Shown: one piece after another, positions 3,106 through 12,366 of the stretch
Layout of the letters: the number at the start of each line of letters is the position of its first letter
Position numbering within the stretch: position 1 is the first letter of the stretch
DNA from: Candidatus Woesearchaeota archaeon
Lineage (GTDB): Archaea > Nanobdellota > Nanobdellia > Woesearchaeales > UBA12501
Assembly: GCA_016180035.1 (NCBI GenBank)
Contig: JACPCA010000012.1
Span: 1 to 12,366 of the forward strand
Direction: 5' to 3'
DNA: 12,366 bases
Translations under genes and position numbers: made by a program
The notes under the pieces: model-generated
What the model was told of the DNA's origin: nothing
The model's input: the letters and a program-made list of their open reading frames with translations, nothing else
Database searches by the model: none

Positions 3106-3138
3106 ATCACCATTAAATGATCATTATACAGCAGCCGC

Positions 3139-4554
3139 TCACAGTCCCAGATGCCCCAGGATCATGGAAGGCTTGAAAGGCGTTAGGTCGTCATACCCCT
3201 GCCCGGTTCCCAAGAAAAGGATCGGCTTTTTCGTGATGTACGATACGGACACGGCAGCGCCGCCTTTCTCATCGACATCAGCCTTGGCAAGGATGATCCC
3301 GTCGATGCTGATGGCGTCGTGGAACTGGCGCGCCTGCTCGACGCAGTCATTGCCCGTGATGCTCTCTCCGATAAAGATCTTGAGGTCTGGCTTCGTGACG
3401 CGGATGACCTTTTTCATCTCGTCCATCAGGTTGGTGTTGGAATGAAGCCTTCCTGCCGTGTCAACAAGAACAACATCAATCTGCTTTGACTGCGCGTACT
3501 TGATGGCATCGAAAGCGACGGCTGCAGGATCTGCGCCATAATCGTGCTTGATGAGCTTGATGCCGAGCTTGTCAGCGTGCTCTTCCAGCTGCTGGATGGC
3601 AGCAGCCCGGAACGTGTCGGACGCGCTGATCACGCAGCTCCGCTTATGCTTCTTGAGGTAGTGCGCCATTTTTGCGATCGTGGTGGTCTTTCCAAAGACG
3701 ATGACGTACGGCTTTTTCTTCTCTGCCATGGACAGGATGTCAATCAGAGGAACCTGAAAAAGGCTTGCCATGGACTGCCGCAACGTTTCTGTCACTGCCT
3801 CTTCGATCTTTCCCCTCGGCAGCTTGGTATCCACGAGCGCAGCCTTGAGATCGCCCTTGATCTTCTCGATGACCTCGACAGCGACATTATTTTCGAGAAG
3901 AGAGATTTCCAGCTCCCAGAAGAGCTCGTCAAACTTTTCTGAAGAAAGGGTTTTCTTGGTGACGGCGTCGGTGATCCTGGAGAAGAAGCCCTTTCCTTCT
4001 TGTTCTTTTTCTTCTGTTTCTTCTTGTTCTTTATCTTCCCCTTCAGCTACTTCTTGTTTTTTCTCTTCAGGCTCTTGCTGCCTTCCCTTCTCTTTCTTCT
4101 CTTTATGTTCTTCCTTCTCTTCTCCTGTTCCCTCTTCTTTTGCCGGCTCCTTTGCCGTGAAGCTCTCTTTGATGCGGGAGAAGAAGCCTTTTTTTGCGGC
4201 AACCGGCTCGGCAACTTGTCCGGGAACAGGCTTGGCAACCGGAACGGCGGCTGGTTCACGGCTTCCTTCTGCTGCCAGTGATGGCCCGCCATGATCGCTT
4301 ATTTCTTCCTGTTCCTTTTTTCCAACGTTCTTTTGTTCCTTTTTTTTCGCCAGAGTCGGAAGCGCACGTTCTTTCCCTTTTTGTCCTTTACCTTTTTGCT
4401 TTCGTTCTATTCTATCTTCCTTTTCTTTTTTCTCTTTCTTTTCTTTTTTTTCTGGCGCTGATTCTGCCTCTTTACTATCATCAGCTTCCTTGCTGACATC
4501 TTTAGAAAATGCAGAGATTGCCTTTTTCAGCTTGTCTTTGAGAAATCCAAACAT
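3139..4554 (-). CDS. ftsY: signal recognition particle receptor FtsY
   Basis: C-terminal NG domain with SRP-GTPase motifs (GKTTTIAKMAHYL; DTAGR; ...ILAKADVDEKGGAAVSV...PILFLGTGQGYDDL). The N-terminal ~270 aa is an extremely K/E-rich acidic A-domain (KEKKEKKEKED..., EEKEQEG...). Confidence 0.95.
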   Translation of the reverse strand: MFGFLKDKLKKAISAFSKDVSKEADDSKEAESAPEKKEKKEKKEKEDRIERKQKGKGQKGKERALPTLAKKKEQKNVGKKEQEEISDHGGPSLAAEGSREPAAVPVAKPVPGQVAEPVAAKKGFFSRIKESFTAKEPAKEEGTGEEKEEHKEKKEKGRQQEPEEKKQEVAEGEDKEQEETEEKEQEGKGFFSRITDAVTKKTLSSEKFDELFWELEISLLENNVAVEVIEKIKGDLKAALVDTKLPRGKIEEAVTETLRQSMASLFQVPLIDILSMAEKKKPYVIVFGKTTTIAKMAHYLKKHKRSCVISASDTFRAAAIQQLEEHADKLGIKLIKHDYGADPAAVAFDAIKYAQSKQIDVVLVDTAGRLHSNTNLMDEMKKVIRVTKPDLKIFIGESITGNDCVEQARQFHDAISIDGIILAKADVDEKGGAAVSVSYITKKPILFLGTGQGYDDLTPFKPSMILGHLGL

Positions 4555-5876: not shown

Positions 5877-6848
5877 ATGGGAAAGTTAGAACAGCCTGAT
5901 TTTGGGATTCAACGATTGCTGGAAATGTCAAAGGCGATCACGTTTATTGCTGACAAAGCGTTGGATGGCTCGGTGGATCTTGCTGCCGATCATCGCCAGG
6001 CTCTTGAAAGGTGCGATCTGAACAGGCCTCAACAGCGCAAGCTTGAAGGCATCGTTGCACGGCTTGGAAAAGCACAGCGGATTATCAGCCATTTGGCAGA
6101 ACGGTATGAGGTACGACCGTCTGGTGTGATTCGAGACAAGCGTGGATTGTATCAGGCAATGTACAATGACTTTCCATCAGGGCCGTTTTCTGCAAGGCCG
6201 CAATCATTTGTCATGGTGTTCTATGTGATTCCAGAAGATATGCATTCTGATTCAGCAGGCCTCACCATGTCATCGGAAATATTAGACGATCTTCTTGATT
6301 ATAATATTGGCCAGATTAGAAAAAGATCCCCCCAATACTGCTCTCTTGATGTTCTTGCCGCAAAGATCAGCCATCATGAGCTTGATGCCAAGAATGGGCA
6401 AGTAAGAGAATATGTCGGCCATGAAACAGGCCATGTTTTTTCGAACATATTAAACCCGCGCTTGTTGCCTTATTTTTCTGAAATCACTGCTGAACTCTTT
6501 GCCCGTGCGGACCTGTCAGCCCGTGATAAGCGTCATGCTATTGCTGAAGCAAAGGAGCTTCATAAGGATTGGGCTGCAGTCCACAAAAGAATGAGGAAGA
6601 GCACGCACTTGGCTGCCCGTTCAGAAATGAATAAGCAGTATGGGAAGGGGTATGGCGACGTTTCAAAATGCCTCGCTTCGCTGCCCCTTTCACGGTTTAG
6701 GAACGTTCTTGAAACAGGTCTCGACAGCAGGGTGCTCGGCGTAGCCATCACGCTGGTACCGTATCAGCAGGCCGAAACGCAGTTGAGGCGCATGACGCGC
6801 TACCTCCAAGAACATCCAGAAGAAGCAACATACGAAAAGCCGAGATGA
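5877..6848 (+). CDS. hypothetical protein with HExxH motif (possible zincin-like metallopeptidase), compositionally atypical
   Basis: 323-aa ORF with HETGH at about 6420-6434 and a glutamate 16 residues downstream (FSEITAEL). GC is about 40-45% and codon usage is AT3-rich (tta, aga, ata, gat, ttt), against about 58-68% GC and GC3-rich codons in the flanking aIF6 and scpA genes. Confidence 0.65.
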   Translation: MGKLEQPDFGIQRLLEMSKAITFIADKALDGSVDLAADHRQALERCDLNRPQQRKLEGIVARLGKAQRIISHLAERYEVRPSGVIRDKRGLYQAMYNDFPSGPFSARPQSFVMVFYVIPEDMHSDSAGLTMSSEILDDLLDYNIGQIRKRSPQYCSLDVLAAKISHHELDAKNGQVREYVGHETGHVFSNILNPRLLPYFSEITAELFARADLSARDKRHAIAEAKELHKDWAAVHKRMRKSTHLAARSEMNKQYGKGYGDVSKCLASLPLSRFRNVLETGLDSRVLGVAITLVPYQQAETQLRRMTRYLQEHPEEATYEKPR

Positions 6849-6884
6849 GAGTATTCCTATAATCGGATTCTTATAACGGTATTC

Positions 6885-7655
6885 TTAATACACCTCTCCC
6901 AATTCCTTCTCGATCTCCTTGTCAATGTTCTGCTTGAGGACCTTGACGTCGATCTCGCCGAAGGGAACTTCCTGCTCAAGGTCGATCTTGCGCTGGTTGG
7001 TCAGGTGGAGAAGCGGAATGAAGGTGTAGATCTTTCCGTGCTTGTCGCTCTCCTTGCCGACCAGCTGGTTGAACGTGATCTTCTTTTCCTCGTCCTTGCG
7101 GAATATGGTAAGGATCCTGGCGTACACCTTTCCCATAATCTCGTTGATGTCGATCTTCTTGGTCGGCAGCTCCAGCTTGATAAGGGAAGGAATGCGGAGC
7201 TTCCGCCGTTTTTCAACCTCCAAGGCCTTTTCAAGCGCGCTGATGAGGTCATAGATGGACACTTTCCGCTTTCTCGGCTGCGGCGTCTTGGGAATCAGCC
7301 GCAAGCCCTTGTACCTGCTGCGGTCAAAGGGCTGGCCAGGCTGTCCGGTATCATCGGCAAGCAGGGCCTGCTCGTCCGTGCCGGCAAGGAGGCCGTCGAA
7401 TTGGGCAATATCCTCTTCCACCAGCCGGTTGGACTTGATACGGAGAAGAATGGCAGCGGCAAGGACGACCTTGCCAGAAATCCGAAGATTAGCTTCCTTC
7501 ATCTCCTTCAGCATCTTGATATACTGCTTCGTCAGCTCAGAGATGTCAATGTCCCAGGGATCCATCTCTTCACTCTTGACCAGGTCGAGAAGAAGGGACT
7601 TCCATGTGATCTCATCTTCCTGAAAGAGGATCGTGAAGATCTTGTCATGCATCAT
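6885..7655 (-). CDS. scpA: segregation and condensation protein A (ScpA kleisin)
   Basis: N-terminal ScpA signature (MDPWDIDISELTKQYIKMLKEMKEANLRISGKVVLAAAILLRIKSNRL) and a C-terminal winged-helix-like region. The ATG at 7655 (MMHDKIF) is preferred over the 7790 track start. TATA-like TATTTAAAG at 7678-7686 sits just upstream on the minus strand. Confidence 0.85.
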   Translation of the reverse strand: MMHDKIFTILFQEDEITWKSLLLDLVKSEEMDPWDIDISELTKQYIKMLKEMKEANLRISGKVVLAAAILLRIKSNRLVEEDIAQFDGLLAGTDEQALLADDTGQPGQPFDRSRYKGLRLIPKTPQPRKRKVSIYDLISALEKALEVEKRRKLRIPSLIKLELPTKKIDINEIMGKVYARILTIFRKDEEKKITFNQLVGKESDKHGKIYTFIPLLHLTNQRKIDLEQEVPFGEIDVKVLKQNIDKEIEKELGEVY

Positions 7656-7778
7656 TGGCGAATCAGTGGCTGGATAGTATTTAAAGATTGTGAAATGAAT
7701 GATTGCCGGGGAGCGACGGAGCGGCAATGCTGCAACAACCATCTTGTCTCTGCGAATATCTTGATACCACCCCGATAC

Positions 7779-7841
7779 AGTCTCAGACAAGTATCAGTCT
7801 TAGTCTCTTGTTTAGTCTTAGTCTCACTGTTTGTCTGAGAC
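7779..7841. repeat. nested inverted repeat enclosing a tandem 12-mer
   Basis: GTCTCAGACAA (7780-7790) is the perfect reverse complement of TTGTCTGAGAC (7831-7841). Inside, AGTCTTAGTCTC occurs twice (7796-7807 and 7814-7825), and GTCT tetramers are enriched throughout. Confidence 0.7.
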
Positions 7842-7859
7842 AAAATACCCTCGCAGACA

Positions 7860-7986
7860 GGAGTTTGGAGTAAGGAGTTTGGAGTTGCGGCGCAGTGAGT
7901 TGGGAGTTTGGAGTAAGGAGTTTGGAGTTGTTGCTGGTGGTAACGCAGCTATTACTCCTAACTCCAAACTAATAACTCCCAACTCA
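7860..7986. repeat. palindromic array of GGAGT pentamers (28-bp direct repeat x2 plus inverted copies)
   Basis: GGAGTTTGGAGTAAGGAGTTTGGAGTTG appears at 7860-7887 and 7903-7930, with GGAGT spaced 7-8 bp apart. A right arm at 7951-7986 carries reverse-complement copies (ACTCCTAACTCCAAACT...AACTCCCAACTC). GAGTTGGGAGTT (7897-7908) pairs perfectly with 7974-7985. The centre of symmetry is near 7940. Confidence 0.7.
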
Positions 7987-8092
7987 TTTCGGGTCTTCCA
8001 CCAGCATAAAGGCTGAGAACAGGGTCTTCCGGAAGCAAAAGTTTTATAAAGAAGCCATAAATTCCAGCCAATGCTGAATACGGTAAGTGCTT

Positions 8093-8632
8093 ATGGCTGA
8101 AAAAAATTCATTTACGGAATTTGAAAGCATTCATCAGGCATTAGGGGAAACGAAGAAGCTCTATCATCCTCGCCCTTCTATAGCAGGAGCTTTCCGGGAC
8201 GGTCAGAACCCAAACCAGCTTGGCAACCATCCTTCAGCGCATTCTCCCACCTCTTCAACAGACGATATCTTCCAGAGCCTCAAGACCATCAAAGTCGATT
8301 CTATCAAAGGCGTCATTGAGGACATTGAAGAGCTGATCCAGAAGCGCAACGAGCTCAGCGATGCCATTTCTACCAAGATCGACAAGATGCTCAACACGCT
8401 CAATAACGTCGAGCTGGAAATCAACGCCGCCCATCGTGACGATACCGCGCTCCAGCACGACATGATGACACTCAAGGGCAAGAAAGTAGATCTTGAAAAG
8501 CTCCGCATTGAGGAGCAGATCGAAAACTGGAAAGACATCGCCCAGCTCAAGCATGAGCTCCGGGAACGCGTCAAGGAATTCAAGGAAAAAGAAGGAAGGC
8601 TTGACATGCTCGACAAGATCCTGTCGGAGTAA
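8093..8632 (+). CDS. hypothetical coiled-coil protein
   Basis: Low-complexity, probably disordered N-terminus (PRPSIAGAFRDGQNPNQLGNHPSAHSPTSST) followed by about 110 aa of heptad-rich, charged sequence (IEDIEELIQKRNELSDAISTKIDKMLNTLNNVELEINAA...LEKLRIEEQIENWKDIAQLKHELRERVKEFKEKEGRLDMLDKILSE). The track start is a GTG at 8087; I prefer the ATG at 8093. TATA-like TTTTATAAAG at 8041-8050. Confidence 0.6.
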   Translation: MAEKNSFTEFESIHQALGETKKLYHPRPSIAGAFRDGQNPNQLGNHPSAHSPTSSTDDIFQSLKTIKVDSIKGVIEDIEELIQKRNELSDAISTKIDKMLNTLNNVELEINAAHRDDTALQHDMMTLKGKKVDLEKLRIEEQIENWKDIAQLKHELRERVKEFKEKEGRLDMLDKILSE

Positions 8633-8698: not shown

Positions 8699-10534
8699 AT
8701 GGAACACGCACTCACGACTGAGGAAATCTGCAAGAAGCTCCGGCCAGTCTTCGGAGACAAGATCGGCCAGATCTACCTCAAGTACAAGCTCTGCGACAAG
8801 ATCGAGAGCAAGATGGAGATTGAGCAGGCCCTCCACAGCCTCTACCACAAGTATCTCAACAAGGGGCTGCTGGATGATGATATCCTGCTCGAGCCGCCTA
8901 AAGAAGGGCAGGTTGCCGGAGAGTACCCTCTCGGCCTGGTGACCTATGCCAAGAAAGACCTGCACTCGTTCTGCCTCCGCGAAAAGGACTGGCCCCGGCA
9001 CGTCTGCATCTCCGGCATGAGCGGCAGCGGCAAGACCACGTTCGCCTTCCAGATCCTTGGAAACTTCATCCTCAAGAAAAAGCCGTTCGTCGCGTTCGAC
9101 TGGAAGAAAAGCTTCCGGCAGCTCATGAACGTCAACAAGAGCCTCCACTGCTTCACGGTCGGCAATGAGCGCGTCAGCAATCACTTCAAGCTCAACATCA
9201 ACCAGCCGCCGCGCAACGTCGGCGCCAAGGAATGGATCAACATCCTCTGCGACCTGATCAACGACGCTTTCTTTGCCAGCTTCGGCGTGCACAAGCTCCT
9301 TCGCGAGACGCTGGACCAGGCTTTCAAGGACTTTGGCGTGTACGAAGGCTCGGAAAATTACCCGACCTGGCGCCAGATCAAGGACAGGCTGGAAGAGATG
9401 GACGCGGACATGCACGGCAAGCGGGGCAGGGAATCAGAATGGCTGGAAAGCGCGCTCCGTATCGCGTCGTCGCTGACGTACGGCGATTTTGGGGAGGCTA
9501 TCAACCATAAAGGCGAAACCATGTTCACGGTGGATGACCTGCTTGACAAGCAGGTGGTCTTTGAACTGCACAATCTCGGCGCCAGCGAGAAAAAGTTTTT
9601 TGCCAGCTTCTTCCTCACCTACGTCTACAAGCTGATGAAGACGAACAATTACGAGTCCGATGGCTTCAAGCTCGCCATTGTCGTTGATGAAGCCCATAAC
9701 ATCTTCCTCAAGGAAAAGCCAAACTTCCTCAACGAAAGCATCACCGACATGATCTATCGGGAGATTCGAGAGTACGGCGTCAGCCTGATCTGCCTTGACC
9801 AGCACATCTCCAAGCTGTCCGACACGGTGGCCGGCAACAGCGCATGCAACATCGCCTTCCAGCAGATCCTGCCGGCAGATGTCGAATGCGTCTCCTCCCT
9901 CATGCAGATCCGGGACCACCGCAAATTCTTCTCCATGCTTCCTGTCGGCCATGCCATCGTCAAGATGGCAGACCGCTACTACAATCCCTTCCTGATCAAG
10001 GCCCCTTTTATTGAACTCAAGAAGAGCATCCTCACGGACGACCAGCTCCGTGACCTGATGAAAGAGCACGTCACCTTCCAGAAGCGCGTCAAGTACTTCA
10101 AGCAGGCCTGCGACGTTACCAACATCAAGAAAGAGCTGGAAAAGCTGGACACCACCTTCAAGGTGAGCAGGGTGGAGACAAACGGCGACCTTGGCGCCAT
10201 GCAGCAGATGAAAGAGCAGAACAGCCGCCTTGTCAGCGAAAGCAAGGCCCCAGTATCCTTTTCATACGAACTAACACAACAACAACAGCAATTTTTGGCA
10301 ACAATCCAAAGCCAAAAACTCTCCCCAATGGGAACCACGCAAATCTATCGACAGCTTAAGTCATCTATCCGGAAAGGAAATGAATTAAAATGTCAATTGA
10401 TAGATTTGGGGTTAATTTCTGAAGAAGTCGAGCGGCACGAAAAAGGTTGGATAAAACATCTTGTTTTAACACCCAGTGGCGCTAGCTATCTTTCGGAAAA
10501 CCCTGAAATACGTGGAAATGTCATCTCTAACTGA
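8699..10534 (+). CDS. HerA/DUF87-family (FtsK-HerA superfamily) P-loop ATPase with C-terminal winged-helix-like extension
   Basis: The RH-x4-G-x-SGSGKT Walker A (PRHVCISGMSGSGKTT, nt about 9007-9039) is preceded by the LDL/hydrophobic context typical of DUF87/HerA. The Walker B is of the hhhhDEAH type (LAIVVDEAHNIF, about 9670-9700). The family R-K/E-Y-G-x-x-h-x-h-x-x-Q motif follows (IREYGVSLICLDQHISKLSDTV, about 9770-9830). The C-terminal ~95 aa (TQIYRQLKSSIRKGNELKCQLIDLGLISEE...WIKHLVLTPSGASYL) resemble a wHTH. It follows the coiled-coil gene after a 66 bp gap. Confidence 0.8.
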   Translation: MEHALTTEEICKKLRPVFGDKIGQIYLKYKLCDKIESKMEIEQALHSLYHKYLNKGLLDDDILLEPPKEGQVAGEYPLGLVTYAKKDLHSFCLREKDWPRHVCISGMSGSGKTTFAFQILGNFILKKKPFVAFDWKKSFRQLMNVNKSLHCFTVGNERVSNHFKLNINQPPRNVGAKEWINILCDLINDAFFASFGVHKLLRETLDQAFKDFGVYEGSENYPTWRQIKDRLEEMDADMHGKRGRESEWLESALRIASSLTYGDFGEAINHKGETMFTVDDLLDKQVVFELHNLGASEKKFFASFFLTYVYKLMKTNNYESDGFKLAIVVDEAHNIFLKEKPNFLNESITDMIYREIREYGVSLICLDQHISKLSDTVAGNSACNIAFQQILPADVECVSSLMQIRDHRKFFSMLPVGHAIVKMADRYYNPFLIKAPFIELKKSILTDDQLRDLMKEHVTFQKRVKYFKQACDVTNIKKELEKLDTTFKVSRVETNGDLGAMQQMKEQNSRLVSESKAPVSFSYELTQQQQQFLATIQSQKLSPMGTTQIYRQLKSSIRKGNELKCQLIDLGLISEEVERHEKGWIKHLVLTPSGASYLSENPEIRGNVISN

Positions 10535-10680
10535 TAAGCCTCGAGCTTAAGATGGCATAGACAGCACATTCTTGTAGTTAGATCTTTCTTCGATGGCAAG
10601 TTTCCTTGGATTACAGCGGAGATCCCTGGAAAAGGCAGTTCTGGTCCGCAATAGGCGTAGTTGTTCTCAACAGGAGAAGA

Positions 10681-10861
10681 CGTGAAAGTGCGACTGGATG
10701 TTGTTGACGAGATTATCGACACGGAGTACGAAGCGCGCGGCGATGCCAAGAAACCGAAGGGCAAGGTAGTGAAGACGCGCCAGCCGGATGATGGCAACAT
10801 GCGGTTGACTGTCCCTCTGGGTGTGTTGGTGAAGTTCAAGAAAGGACAGAAGCAGTCGTAG
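10681..10861 (+). CDS. hypothetical small basic protein (59 aa from GTG; 66 aa from the ATG at 10661)
   Basis: GGAG-type motif (CAACAGGAGAAGAC) sits just before the GTG at 10681. Translation is VKVRLDVVDEIIDTEYEARGDAKKPKGKVVKTRQPDDGNMRLTVPLGVLVKFKKGQKQS, with GC3-rich codons. No family recognised. Confidence 0.3.
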
Positions 10862-10908
10862 GGAAGAAAAGAAGAAGGCAAGATAGACAACGAAAGGAAA
10901 AAGGCAAG

Positions 10909-11085
10909 ATGGTTCCCGTGTACGAAAGAGCGACGACTGGAGAATACCGGTTTTCCAGATTCGTCAAACCGAGGGTCCGCACCGGCAAGAAGAGAGGCGC
11001 CCTGCAGGGTCCGATGATCCGCATCGACCTGGTGGCCCTCAACAACAGACCGAACCGCAACCAAGGAGAGAAAGCAGCGTGCTGA
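10909..11085 (+). CDS. hypothetical small basic protein (58 aa; not in the ORF track)
   Basis: ATG at 10909 preceded by AGGAAAAAGG. Translation is MVPVYERATTGEYRFSRFVKPRVRTGKKRGALQGPMIRIDLVALNNRPNRNQGEKAAC. GC3-rich codons suggest coding. AAGGCAAGAT is directly repeated at 10876-10885 and 10901-10910 in the leader. Confidence 0.25.
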   Translation: MVPVYERATTGEYRFSRFVKPRVRTGKKRGALQGPMIRIDLVALNNRPNRNQGEKAAC

Positions 11086-11294
11086 CGCGACCGAAGAAGA
11101 AGGAGGTTGATGGACGGACACCAGTGCCGCTCATCGTCCCCATGGATCGTGCCCGTCTCGCAACGATGCTTGGCAAACCTGCCATCATCGCGACGGCCTC
11201 GGCATCCGCCAGTGATCCGCTCGCACATCTCCTGAAGGAGGGAGAGGAGGACATGGCAGTCACCGATCCGTGCGTGATGACCGATCTCGAGTGA
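11079..11294 (+). CDS. hypothetical small protein (71 aa, GTG start)
   Basis: GC3-rich ORF overlapping the previous one by 7 nt. Translation is ...PVPLIVPMDRARLATMLGKPAIIATASASASDPLAHLLKEGEEDMAVTDPCVMTDLE. No recognisable domain. Confidence 0.25.
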   Translation: MLTRPKKKEVDGRTPVPLIVPMDRARLATMLGKPAIIATASASASDPLAHLLKEGEEDMAVTDPCVMTDLE

Positions 11295-11360
11295 CCTACC
11301 GAAGCAACCTGAAAGGAGGATACTGTATAGAATAGAGACAAGGCAACGCGCTACCATCAG

Positions 11361-11510
11361 GGTTTTTGCTGCTTTTTACCTGACGGCGAGCGGCATTGTA
11401 GCAACCTAAAAAGCAGCAGCAGAGAGCCATTGACGGAGTATCCACACTGTCGTGGGCGGTCCGCTTTCCCAGACCTTTGACGCGAAAGAAGACCACGTCA
11501 ATGGCTCTCT
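11361..11510. other. structured non-coding region with two perfect inverted repeats (candidate ncRNA, att site or regulatory site)
   Basis: TGCTGCTTTTTA (11367-11378) pairs with TAAAAAGCAGCA (11407-11418) around a 28-nt loop. This is immediately followed by AGAGAGCCATTGACG (11421-11435), which is the perfect reverse complement of CGTCAATGGCTCTCT (11496-11510) across a 60-nt spacer. The surrounding 380 bp (11295-11683) contains no ORF. Confidence 0.45.
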
Positions 11511-11683
11511 AGGCAGCAGCTGCCATAAACGCAAAGCGTAGCGTAGCTGTTGTCTGTCCGCAGTACGAATAAGAGTAGCAGTTGAATGGAAGTGCCACCC
11601 TCCTTAAATCCGTGATGGGGCTCTCACGTCGAGAGTGGAATGGTGGATAGTCGCAGTAAGATGTATCAAGGAAAGAGATAGAT

Positions 11684-12366
11684 ATGTCCAAGATCCGGAA
11701 GACCCAGAAGCCCAACGGCATCAGCAACGCAACCTGGAAGAAGACCAAGCAGATCGCGAAGCAGCAGGGCCTCGACCAGCAGCAGACTCTGCAGGTGGCG
11801 GCGAGCATCCAGGCGCAGAAGCAGCAGAAGGGCAACGGCCAGAAGACGCTCGGCACGCAGTTCGTCGTGACGATGCATGGTGGCATCCCGCAGGACGTGC
11901 AGTACCGCATCGCCGAGGCCGCCACGGGAACGCCCTCGCTCATCGGGAGCAAGGACGGCTGCATCGTGGCGTTCAACGACAAGACGACAGCTGCGGTGAA
12001 GCAGGCACTTGCCGAGACGTACGGTGGCCGCGTGTCGATCCAGCAGGTGAACGTCAAGACGGAGGACAAAGAGGCAACCTTCGTGTCCGCGACCAAGGAC
12101 CTGCCCAACCTGGCGCTGAAGACGGGCGACGTCCAGGACGAGCAGATGAAGGTGCACGGGATGGAGATCGCTTCGACGCCGCAGGGCACCGAGCTCCTCG
12201 GCTTCCTGGCGAACCTGATCGGCGACGGCTACTACGCGGCGCAGATCGGGGAGGTGACGGGCATCCGCGGACCGGCGTTCGGCAACATGATCGACGGCAC
12301 GCCGCGCTCGGTGGAGGTGCTCATCAACTGCAACCCGCTTGCGTGGATGGAGCACCAGGTCGGCCT
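11684..12366 (+). CDS. hypothetical protein, 3'-truncated by the window end (at least 227 aa), strongly GC3-biased
   Basis: I translated by hand from the ATG at 11684 to the window end with no stop (MSKIRKTQKPNGISNATWKKTKQIAKQQGLDQQQ...GYYAAQIGEVTGIRGPAFGNMIDGTPRSVEVLINCNPLAWMEHQVG). Third positions are almost all G or C, as expected of a real gene in a high-GC context. The track shows only the antisense ORFs 11509-12189 and 11666-12355, because this ORF has no stop within the window. Confidence 0.75.
   Translation, partial: MSKIRKTQKPNGISNATWKKTKQIAKQQGLDQQQTLQVAASIQAQKQQKGNGQKTLGTQFVVTMHGGIPQDVQYRIAEAATGTPSLIGSKDGCIVAFNDKTTAAVKQALAETYGGRVSIQQVNVKTEDKEATFVSATKDLPNLALKTGDVQDEQMKVHGMEIASTPQGTELLGFLANLIGDGYYAAQIGEVTGIRGPAFGNMIDGTPRSVEVLINCNPLAWMEHQVG

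Follow-up and report, generated by a model that had tools for sequence, protein, structure and literature searches.

The 12,366-nt stretch of DNA analysed here (hereafter the window) is part of a Woesearchaeota contig, JACPCA010000012.1, and thus of the genome of a DPANN archaeon. Its genes are archaeal in character and include those for a Band 7 protein, a DUF475/TerC membrane protein, FtsY, prefoldin alpha, eIF6 and ScpA. In this report we describe an array of GGAGT-containing heptads that sits in the 437-bp spacer between two divergent genes, that of ScpA (6885–7655, minus strand, with an ATG at 7655 that is backed by an exact gene call) and that of a 179-aa coiled-coil protein (8093–8632, plus strand, ATG at 8093), the latter accompanied by the gene for a 611-aa ATPase of the DUF87/HerA type (8699–10534).

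Anatomy and folding of the GGAGT array

Eleven of the 19 GGAGT/ACTCC pentamers of the window fall in 7860–7979, eight as exact direct GGAGT copies and three as exact ACTCC copies, in agreement with the count of about 11 in an initial annotation of this DNA. The direct copies start at 7860, 7867, 7874 and 7881 and again at 7903, 7910, 7917 and 7924; the regular phasing described in that annotation holds, with a period of strictly 7 bp instead of the 7–8 bp proposed.

Specifically, four heptads (GGAGTTT GGAGTAA GGAGTTT GGAGTTG) make up block A (7860–7887, plus strand), whose 28-bp sequence, GGAGTTTGGAGTAAGGAGTTTGGAGTTG, recurs as block B (7903–7930, plus strand) with 28 of 28 positions identical, 43 bp apart and with 15 nt between the copies; the duplication claimed for this unit therefore proved to be a perfect one (100 % identity). 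The interval between the two blocks (7888–7902, plus strand) consists of the linker CGGCGCAG followed by a degenerate heptad, TGAGTTG (7896–7902), which is in phase with block B. A loop or spacer of 23 nt (TTGCTGGTGGTAACGCAGCTATT, 7931–7953, no strand assigned), delimited from sequence and fold and provided with a small stem of its own (GCTG...CAGC), separates block B from block C (ACTCCTA ACTCCAA ACTAATA ACTCCCA ACTCATT; 7954–7988, minus strand), which converges on A and B. Three of the five reverse units of block C carry an exact ACTCC (at 7954, 7961 and 7975), the other two reading ACTAA and ACTCA. By inverted-repeat search and folding, the whole imperfect palindrome, to which no strand is assigned, spans 7891–7991. 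The longest inverted repeat has arms of 46 nt (7891–7936 and 7946–7991), 76 % complementary, with 9 nt between them and a centre at about 7941, which confirms the right arm of ACTCC copies and the centre near 7940 recognised in the initial annotation.

Across the ten independent heptads, positions 3–5 (AGT) are invariant, position 2 is G in nine and position 1 in seven, position 6 is T in eight, and position 7 is free. Tandem Repeats Finder reports a period of 7 with 9.9 copies and a period of 14 with 4.9 copies. As in heptanucleotide simple sequence repeats (SSRs), the 7-nt units stand head to tail in at least about four copies, and their location is intergenic and non-coding; no second copy of the array was found in the 12.4-kb window. 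It is very unlikely that the array is coding: a 61-aa open reading frame (ORF) at 7831–8016 is present, as had been pointed out, but the 7-nt period breaks the frame, and neither this ORF nor one of 52 aa across the array has a Pfam match. A CRISPR array, dismissed from the outset, was rejected as well, the units being contiguous and 7 nt long, where CRISPR repeats measure 23–50 nt and alternate with unique spacers of comparable size, and the sole 28-nt repeat having two copies 15 nt apart.

The clustering of the heptads is not due to chance. The paired-heptad pattern GGAGTNNGGAGT, with up to one mismatch, occurs nine times, all inside the array, against 0.51 occurrences expected, and none of 200 shuffles reached nine; the largest 5-mer cluster holds 11 copies in 130 bp, whereas 300 simulations never gave more than 8. 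Nor is the array an assembly artefact, because two independent assemblies reproduce the sequence exactly. Logan contig L636 (run SRR12113424) covers the whole spacer with 100 % identity, and Logan contig L635 (run SRR12113422) is identical but begins inside block B, which is the usual behaviour of short-read assemblers at repeats.

In the minimum-energy fold of the plus strand block A is unpaired, the left hairpin arm starts in the interval between A and B and includes block B, and block C provides the right arm. Compared with shuffled sequences, the z-scores are −6.8 for the plus-strand RNA, −7.3 for the minus-strand RNA and −6.5 for the DNA, the predicted hairpin energy being −61 kcal/mol as plus-strand RNA (146-nt fold) and −29.5 kcal/mol as DNA. 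Both strands thus fold far below shuffles, and the long hairpin envisaged in the initial annotation is possible.

One could accordingly propose that the array is transcribed as a long hairpin RNA, either a small RNA or the 5' leader of the coiled-coil/ATPase operon, which would act through its structure or by titrating a factor. The plus strand would then present four free, Shine-Dalgarno-like GGAGU units ahead of a hairpin of about 100 nt, a palindromic TTTAAA at 7680–7685 could in principle fire rightwards, and most Xanthomonas heptamer arrays are transcribed (PMC4692102). We nevertheless consider a hairpin RNA improbable. A DNA palindrome yields such z-scores automatically; an Rfam cmscan of the window (E ≤ 1) gave nothing at the array and a single weak, unrelated match elsewhere; no convincing archaeal TATA box or transcription factor B recognition element (BRE) immediately precedes the array on either strand, and no oligo-T terminator comes after it. 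In addition, the equivalent regions of two relatives (loci L001 and L003, see below) fold no better than shuffles (z −0.95 and −1.10), so that covariation cannot support an RNA; with regions that barely align and no significant structure at this position in the relatives, a conserved structured RNA was rejected.

Other structural candidates were discarded on the same stretch. An intrinsic terminator is at odds with the divergent flanking genes and with the mere TTT that follows the 3' arm; a scan for sigma-70 promoters and terminators returned one weak terminator-like match and is uninformative for an archaeon. ARAGORN detected no tRNA or tmRNA gene in the window, and no trace of a split or unusual tRNA at the array. 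An intrastrand triplex of blocks A, B and C was rejected on reading the sequence, A being a direct and not a mirror repeat of B.

As regards the surrounding promoters, both are predictions from the sequence, with putative transcription starts near 7655 (minus strand) and 8075 (plus strand). The putative TATA box of ScpA (TTTAAATA, 7678–7685, minus strand) lies 23 nt before the ATG, and the putative BRE/TATA of the coiled-coil gene reads AAAAG-TTTATAAA (8043–8050, plus strand). The array ends 55 bp upstream of the latter TATA box and starts 175 bp from the former, and it overlaps neither core promoter.

A long repeat-rich spacer between divergent gene blocks, with motifs converging on about 7941, might also call to mind a replication origin, or a polar loading site for an ATPase of the FtsK/HerA superfamily, as FtsK-orienting polar sequences (KOPS) converge on dif; like FtsK, the ATPase of the window would, according to its structure model, have both a translocase fold and a winged helix at the C-terminus. 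We regard either role as extremely unlikely. No orc1/cdc6 gene was recognised in the window, and no box resembling an origin recognition box (ORB) was seen on reading the sequence, no formal ORB model having been run; the G+C content is 0.45–0.46 in windows over the spacer, where no AT-rich unwinding stretch stands out. Moreover, the array is absent at the other orthologous loci, and bacterial and phage heptad pairs share its convergent order as a general feature, as described below. The suggestion of an origin- or partition-site-like element in the initial annotation was therefore not borne out, ParA and ribbon-helix-helix genes being likewise among those not recognised in the window.

The array and the conserved boxes in orthologous operons

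The coiled-coil protein (about 180 aa) and the HerA/VirB4/TrwB-like ATPase form a conserved pair across Woese-, Pace- and Nanoarchaeota. Neither a look-up of the exact ATPase protein nor a scan of genome contigs with a single protein found anything; an alignment-based scan gave 64 loci, and the comparison set comprised 68 other loci from the three groups, in 59 of which the two genes are adjacent by tblastn. The neighbour upstream of the operon varies, ScpA being found in this window only and a divergent tRNA-like gene in many lineages; this last looks by eye like a tRNA-Leu, unconfirmed by any tool. The genes downstream of the pair in relatives belong to no Pfam family.

When the 600 bp before each coiled-coil gene were scanned for clustered 5-mers, a GGAGT array appeared in this window alone and at none of the 59 other loci, including relatives with 73–75 % ATPase identity. 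In the closest relatives available (L003, 75 %; L001 and L002, 73 %) the spacers are of similar length and almost unalignable in sequence. At the same position L001 carries GGCGTTT GGAGTCA TAAGTTT on the left and two copies of CCCAAAC on the right, with arms that are no longer complementary; to judge from their sequence, these heptads look like a decayed counterpart of the array. Absence from 59 orthologous loci, with decayed heptads in L001 only, corresponds to the rapid turnover of SSRs. Small period-7 arrays number only 10 in 558 kb of related loci.

The initial annotation had considered the array as a possible operator read by the winged helix-turn-helix of the adjacent ATPase. The domain itself is plausible: the AlphaFold model of the ATPase (mean predicted local distance difference test score 82) shows a C-terminal winged helix of the order helix-helix-helix-strand-strand-helix at residues 527–600, preceded by a core that in the model resembles HerA, VirB4 and TrwB. 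Pfam misses the winged helix, whose assignment comes from the AlphaFold model, and the sole NCBIfam matches, to the DNA-import ATPases CedD/CedB, are weak and score far under the cut-off. Relatives without the array have the very same putative recognition helix, S-x-RKGNELK, which hardly varies in the whole family. It is therefore unlikely that the GGAGT array is the cognate site of the ATPase winged helix, and with no array at the 59 other loci that have the gene pair, an operator tied to this module could not be upheld. A conserved reader should have a conserved site, and conserved boxes nearby are thus better site candidates than the GGAGT array.

Two sets of such boxes can be recognised. 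The first, detected by motif clustering, is a group of GTCT/AGAC boxes at 7778–7843 (no strand assigned), 17 bp to the left of the array, with nine boxes in 90 bp against a null maximum of 7 and a null mean of 4. It contains a perfect 13-bp palindrome, TTGTCTGAGACAA (7831–7843), a half-site, CAGTCTCAGACAA, and two copies of AGTCTTAGTCTC. Boxes of this kind (TTGTCTC, GTCTSAGAC, GAGACAA) also precede the coiled-coil gene in L001, L002 and L003; because related boxes are kept in these relatives, the GTCT/AGAC cluster is, on present sequence comparison, a better operator candidate than the GGAGT array. Conservation is moderate only, and the highest-count cluster in L001 and L002 lies elsewhere in those loci.

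The second set consists of two GGGTCTTCC boxes (7991–7999 and 8022–8030, plus strand), which are 31 bp apart and abut the putative BRE/TATA of the coiled-coil gene, the second one inside the palindrome CTTCCGGAAG. GGAA(A/G)ACC-type boxes lie beside the TATA box in L003 and recur in L005, L006, L008, L012, L052 and L059, and both the reverse complement GGAAGACCC and YGGAAAACC boxes hold the same promoter-proximal position in other clade members. The GGGTCTTCC/GGAA(A/G)ACC boxes therefore look like a conserved promoter-proximal element of the operon. A similar motif was observed at the other end of the operon in Pace- and Nanoarchaeota, where four to six (Y)GAAATAC(C) boxes, resembling the YGGAAAACC promoter boxes of the window's clade, lie 100–260 bp after the ATPase stop in at least six loci (L024, L031, L042, L045, L049 and L056), with looser matches in L019, L029, L038 and L051. 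Their spacing is irregular (about 25–45 bp), their orientation mostly the same, and they occupy an AT-rich spacer of about 350 bp directly after the ATPase gene.

A further observation concerns L059, in which about 14 TATGCTTG units in one orientation (3135–3305 of that locus) lie 130–330 bp upstream of the coiled-coil gene, at the relative position of the GGAGT array. They are organised as an 83-bp higher-order repeat, present twice.

In conclusion, the GGAGT array is not a conserved operator, centromere or RNA gene, and the comparison revealed which cis-elements of a very widespread Nanoarchaeota operon are conserved.

Heptad arrays in other contigs and the proposed origin of the array

Arrays of the same form were sought with the four-heptad pattern GGAGTNNGGAGTNNGGAGTNNGGAGT, which has free spacers and 20 specified bases and for which about one chance match or fewer per collection would be expected (a rough estimate, not computed). 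It matched at least 120 metagenome contigs and at least 120 viral contigs, with a G+C content of 0.31–0.68 in a subset of them. Three control pentamers, which share the composition of GGAGT and are not cyclically related to it, gave at least 120, 96 and at least 120 viral matches in four-heptad arrays. Because these same-composition controls are about as abundant, GGAGT was rejected as a special pentamer, and heptad arrays are generic rather than a GGAGT-specific system. The initial annotation had named, as what would speak against its proposal, a common dispersed repeat at many unrelated loci without association with the gene pair; this is borne out in so far as repeats of this type turn up in numerous unrelated contigs, independently of the pair.

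Some of these contigs carry several GGAGT heptad sites, namely L115 with four in 13.5 kb, L103 with three in 3.5 kb, and also L219 and L238. In L103 (1124–1393 and 2884–2909) three GGAGTTG arrays, two of which have an inverted partner, fall within long open frames (545 and 414 aa), suggesting that apparent coding sequence can contain, or be interrupted by, hairpin arrays of this kind; a classification of the gene context of the collection matches from stop-to-stop ORFs was judged unreliable in GC-rich contigs and set aside. In some loci, for instance L305 and L483, the palindrome extends past the arrays into the flanks. Both this extension and the recurrence of the heptad within contigs would be expected of a dispersed palindromic family, similar to MITEs (miniature transposable elements with inverted repeats) or to the short tandemly repeated repetitive (STRR) sequences, that had landed at the locus by chance, and the break of the short-read assembly L635 inside block B points the same way. 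To such a family we give little credence, however. The window holds a single copy, around which no target-site duplication or distinct terminal inverted repeats were seen on inspection; blastn in distant mode with 7770–8045 gave no match in the phage and plasmid collections; the decayed heptads at the same position of L001 suggest local descent rather than insertion; and the related loci contain no more than the ten small period-7 arrays mentioned above.

The order of the two arms is a general feature of these arrays. Among the matches listed (L069–L634; four pentamer families), the inverted partner lies 3' of the G-rich array in 51 distinct loci and on the opposite side in one; this G-rich-first order reads identically on both strands, and the array of the window obeys it. 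Among the same matches the paired arrays have a median loop of 54 nt, and at least four T follow the 3' arm in three of the 51. A classical terminator role for paired arrays was consequently rejected, the T-run being found in these three only and the genes of the window being divergent.

The array is thus regular in its anatomy, not conserved between orthologous operons, of a repeat type that is abundant elsewhere, and convergent in its architecture. We favour, at a probability of about 0.55, the interpretation that it is a lineage-specific heptanucleotide SSR with the unit (G)GAGT(T)N, accompanied by an inverted copy, which arose by slippage and inverted duplication and has no conserved sequence-specific role. 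We infer both the origin by slippage and the absence of a specific function, the strict 7-bp period, the 14-bp higher-order unit, the two identical blocks and the more diverged inverted units pointing to recent slippage and duplication. In the sequence of events that we envisage, slipped-strand replication of 7- and 14-nt units would first have produced a short array; an inverted duplication or template switch would then have created the convergent partner, block C; and a recent 28-bp duplication would have added block A, which is still identical to B. The product would be a stretch of about 130 bp, prone to form a hairpin or cruciform, in the spacer upstream of both predicted core promoters.

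Any effect of the array is probably structural or exerted through spacing, and not sequence-specific. Extrusion of a cruciform could absorb supercoiling. In addition, each heptad gained or lost would shift the conserved GTCT palindrome (7831–7843) by 7 bp relative to the promoter, in a manner comparable to the hmw1A repeat discussed below.

Several points weigh against a slippage-born SSR without specific function. DPANN genomes are compact, yet all three close relatives have a long spacer (440, about 490 and more than 530 bp), in which something is therefore probably functional. The two consensus assemblies, which come from different runs, do not differ in copy number and give no evidence of hypermutability. 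The invariant AGT in 10 of 10 independent heptads, with a free position 7, also fits a core recognised by a protein, and blocks of exactly four contiguous heptads correspond to the minimum functional array of the ParB protein omega. Finally, the top two 6-mer clusters in the 558 kb of related loci are those of L059 and of this window, both 230–310 bp upstream of the coiled-coil gene. This shared position is a weak hint at a link with the operon, because the window was chosen for its array and L059 alone counts as independent; it is weakened further because much of the non-coding DNA of these loci belongs to the upstream spacer.

Some of these points would be accounted for if the array were a platform for a small oligomerising DNA-binding protein, with one heptad per dimer, serving as an upstream operator or a centromere-like site. 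Two plasmid systems offer precedents. Omega, the ribbon-helix-helix ParB of plasmid pSM19035, binds contiguous 7-bp WATCACW units in either orientation, 7–10 per site, and can activate its ParA only with four or more heptads in a row (PMC9499535). ParG, at parH/OF of plasmid TP228, reads 8–20 ACTC boxes with AT-rich spacers in mixed orientation, a site that is both operator and centromere (PMC3130281). Like the omega sites, the array consists of contiguous 7-bp direct and inverted units at a fixed period, four in each direct block, with an invariant AGT core and variable flanks; ACTC, the box of ParG, is the core of ACTCC. The neighbouring genes, for ScpA and the HerA/VirB4-like winged-helix ATPase, belong to chromosome biology, and in L059 the corresponding position is occupied by a large array of another kind. 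There are also differences. The binding sites of omega lie across the promoters of the cognate genes copS, delta and omega, with the gene of the binding protein alongside, whereas the array overlaps neither predicted promoter, and Pfam and NCBIfam scans of the ORFs of at least 50 aa in the window revealed no gene for a ribbon-helix-helix, ParA or other small DNA-binding protein. The ParG boxes have a period of 8 bp (4+4) instead of 7 bp and belong to a plasmid partition locus with parF and parG adjacent. Furthermore, the array is missing at the 59 other orthologous loci although the putative recognition helix of the ATPase is unchanged, heptad arrays with other sequences and the same regularity abound everywhere, and the convergent order is general to such arrays and not peculiar to this locus. 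We therefore judge a protein platform, though the main alternative to an SSR, unlikely.

Bolder still, and very unlikely in our estimation, is the idea that the array is a fast-evolving, lineage-specific assembly site, where a heptad reader would nucleate on GGAGT and hand the DNA to the coiled-coil protein and the HerA/FtsK-like ATPase encoded beside ScpA, the L059 array and the GAAATACC clusters that other lineages have downstream of the ATPase gene being divergent counterparts. If true, the heptad reader and the coiled-coil/ATPase pair would constitute a chromosome-handling system of DPANN archaea.

Other repeats and structures were observed in the window. A 14-bp tandem repeat, GTATTCTTATAACG, is present in 2.6 copies at 6851–6887, in the 36-bp gap between the convergent gene at 5877–6848 (plus strand) and that of ScpA (minus strand). 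The CTTCTT-type runs of the plus strand at 3990–4455 correspond to the Lys/Glu-rich N-terminal region of FtsY (minus strand), that is, to coding low complexity, and are not regulatory. The region 10535–12366 differs from the remainder of the contig by a G+C content that rises to 0.58–0.65 and an AT skew of +0.2 to +0.3; beyond the ATPase gene, some 1.1 kb hold short doubtful ORFs only, and an open frame without a family match starts at 11681 and runs off the contig end. Upstream of this last ORF, three long stems are predicted at 11340–11560 on the plus strand (−86 kcal/mol, z −3.8; no Rfam match), with perfect inverted repeats of 15 nt (11421–11435/11496–11510) and 12 nt (11367–11378/11407–11418), and this segment may be an unannotated structured RNA or a regulatory region.

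Comparison with known heptanucleotide repeats

The STRR heptanucleotide repeats of cyanobacteria were reportedly described by Mazel et al. in 1990, and TAACTGA repeats are found in Beggiatoaceae and cyanobacteria (MacGregor 2015, PMC4679880). With both the array shares tandem 7-nt units, a mostly intergenic location, a lineage-specific sequence and the lack of an established function. Unlike it, these repeats are mostly direct (one inverted case in 170 sets in the Guaymas genome) and present in hundreds of copies per genome, and the TAACTGA sets lie directly upstream of start codons.

The hmw1A promoter of Haemophilus influenzae contains a 7-bp tandem repeat, (ATCTTTC)n, whose copy number sets expression via promoter-to-gene geometry (PMC8262952). 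The array is likewise a 7-bp tandem repeat in a promoter region. In hmw1A, however, 13–24 perfect units lie between two promoters and their copy-number variation is documented, whereas the window has 4+4 imperfect units upstream of the promoter, identical in two assemblies.

The closest parallels are the Xanthomonas GGGAATC and Nostoc GGGGA(C/T)T arrays. Heptanucleotide units are the most abundant class of long SSRs in most prokaryotic genomes, and slippage of the polymerase has been held responsible for them (Mrazek et al. 2007, summarised in PMC4679880 and PMC4692102). In Xanthomonas, about 190 GGGAATC arrays occur per genome, 89–93 % of them intergenic, and in 70–75 cases per genome two nearby arrays lie on opposite strands in 'convergent orientation', with the potential to form a stem-loop or cruciform and no known function (Rehm et al. 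2015, PMC4692102). The GGAGT array has the same organisation, blocks A and B on the plus strand being followed by the 23-nt loop and by block C on the minus strand. It also shares with the Xanthomonas and Nostoc heptamers a G-rich 7-nt unit, about four units per array, an intergenic location, a short spacer between convergent arrays on opposite strands with stem-loop or cruciform potential, and a length and sequence that vary between close relatives. Unlike them, the GGAGTNN unit has no G-run, so that no G-quadruplex is possible, and the host is a DPANN archaeon; compared with the Xanthomonas genomes, one copy is visible in 12.4 kb, and two direct blocks face one inverted block.

In conclusion, the array adds an archaeal representative to a class of repeats that is known but functionally unexplained, and it shows the heptamer pair, with its characteristic convergent order, in a DPANN archaeon. 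To our knowledge, archaea lack the bacterial Rho factor, and explanations via bacterial machinery would therefore not cover the archaeal array. Taken alone, the array matters little; the question of the convergent order is more interesting than the single locus, since a mechanistic cause of the rule seen among the matches listed (51 loci versus 1), should there be one, would concern many genomes.

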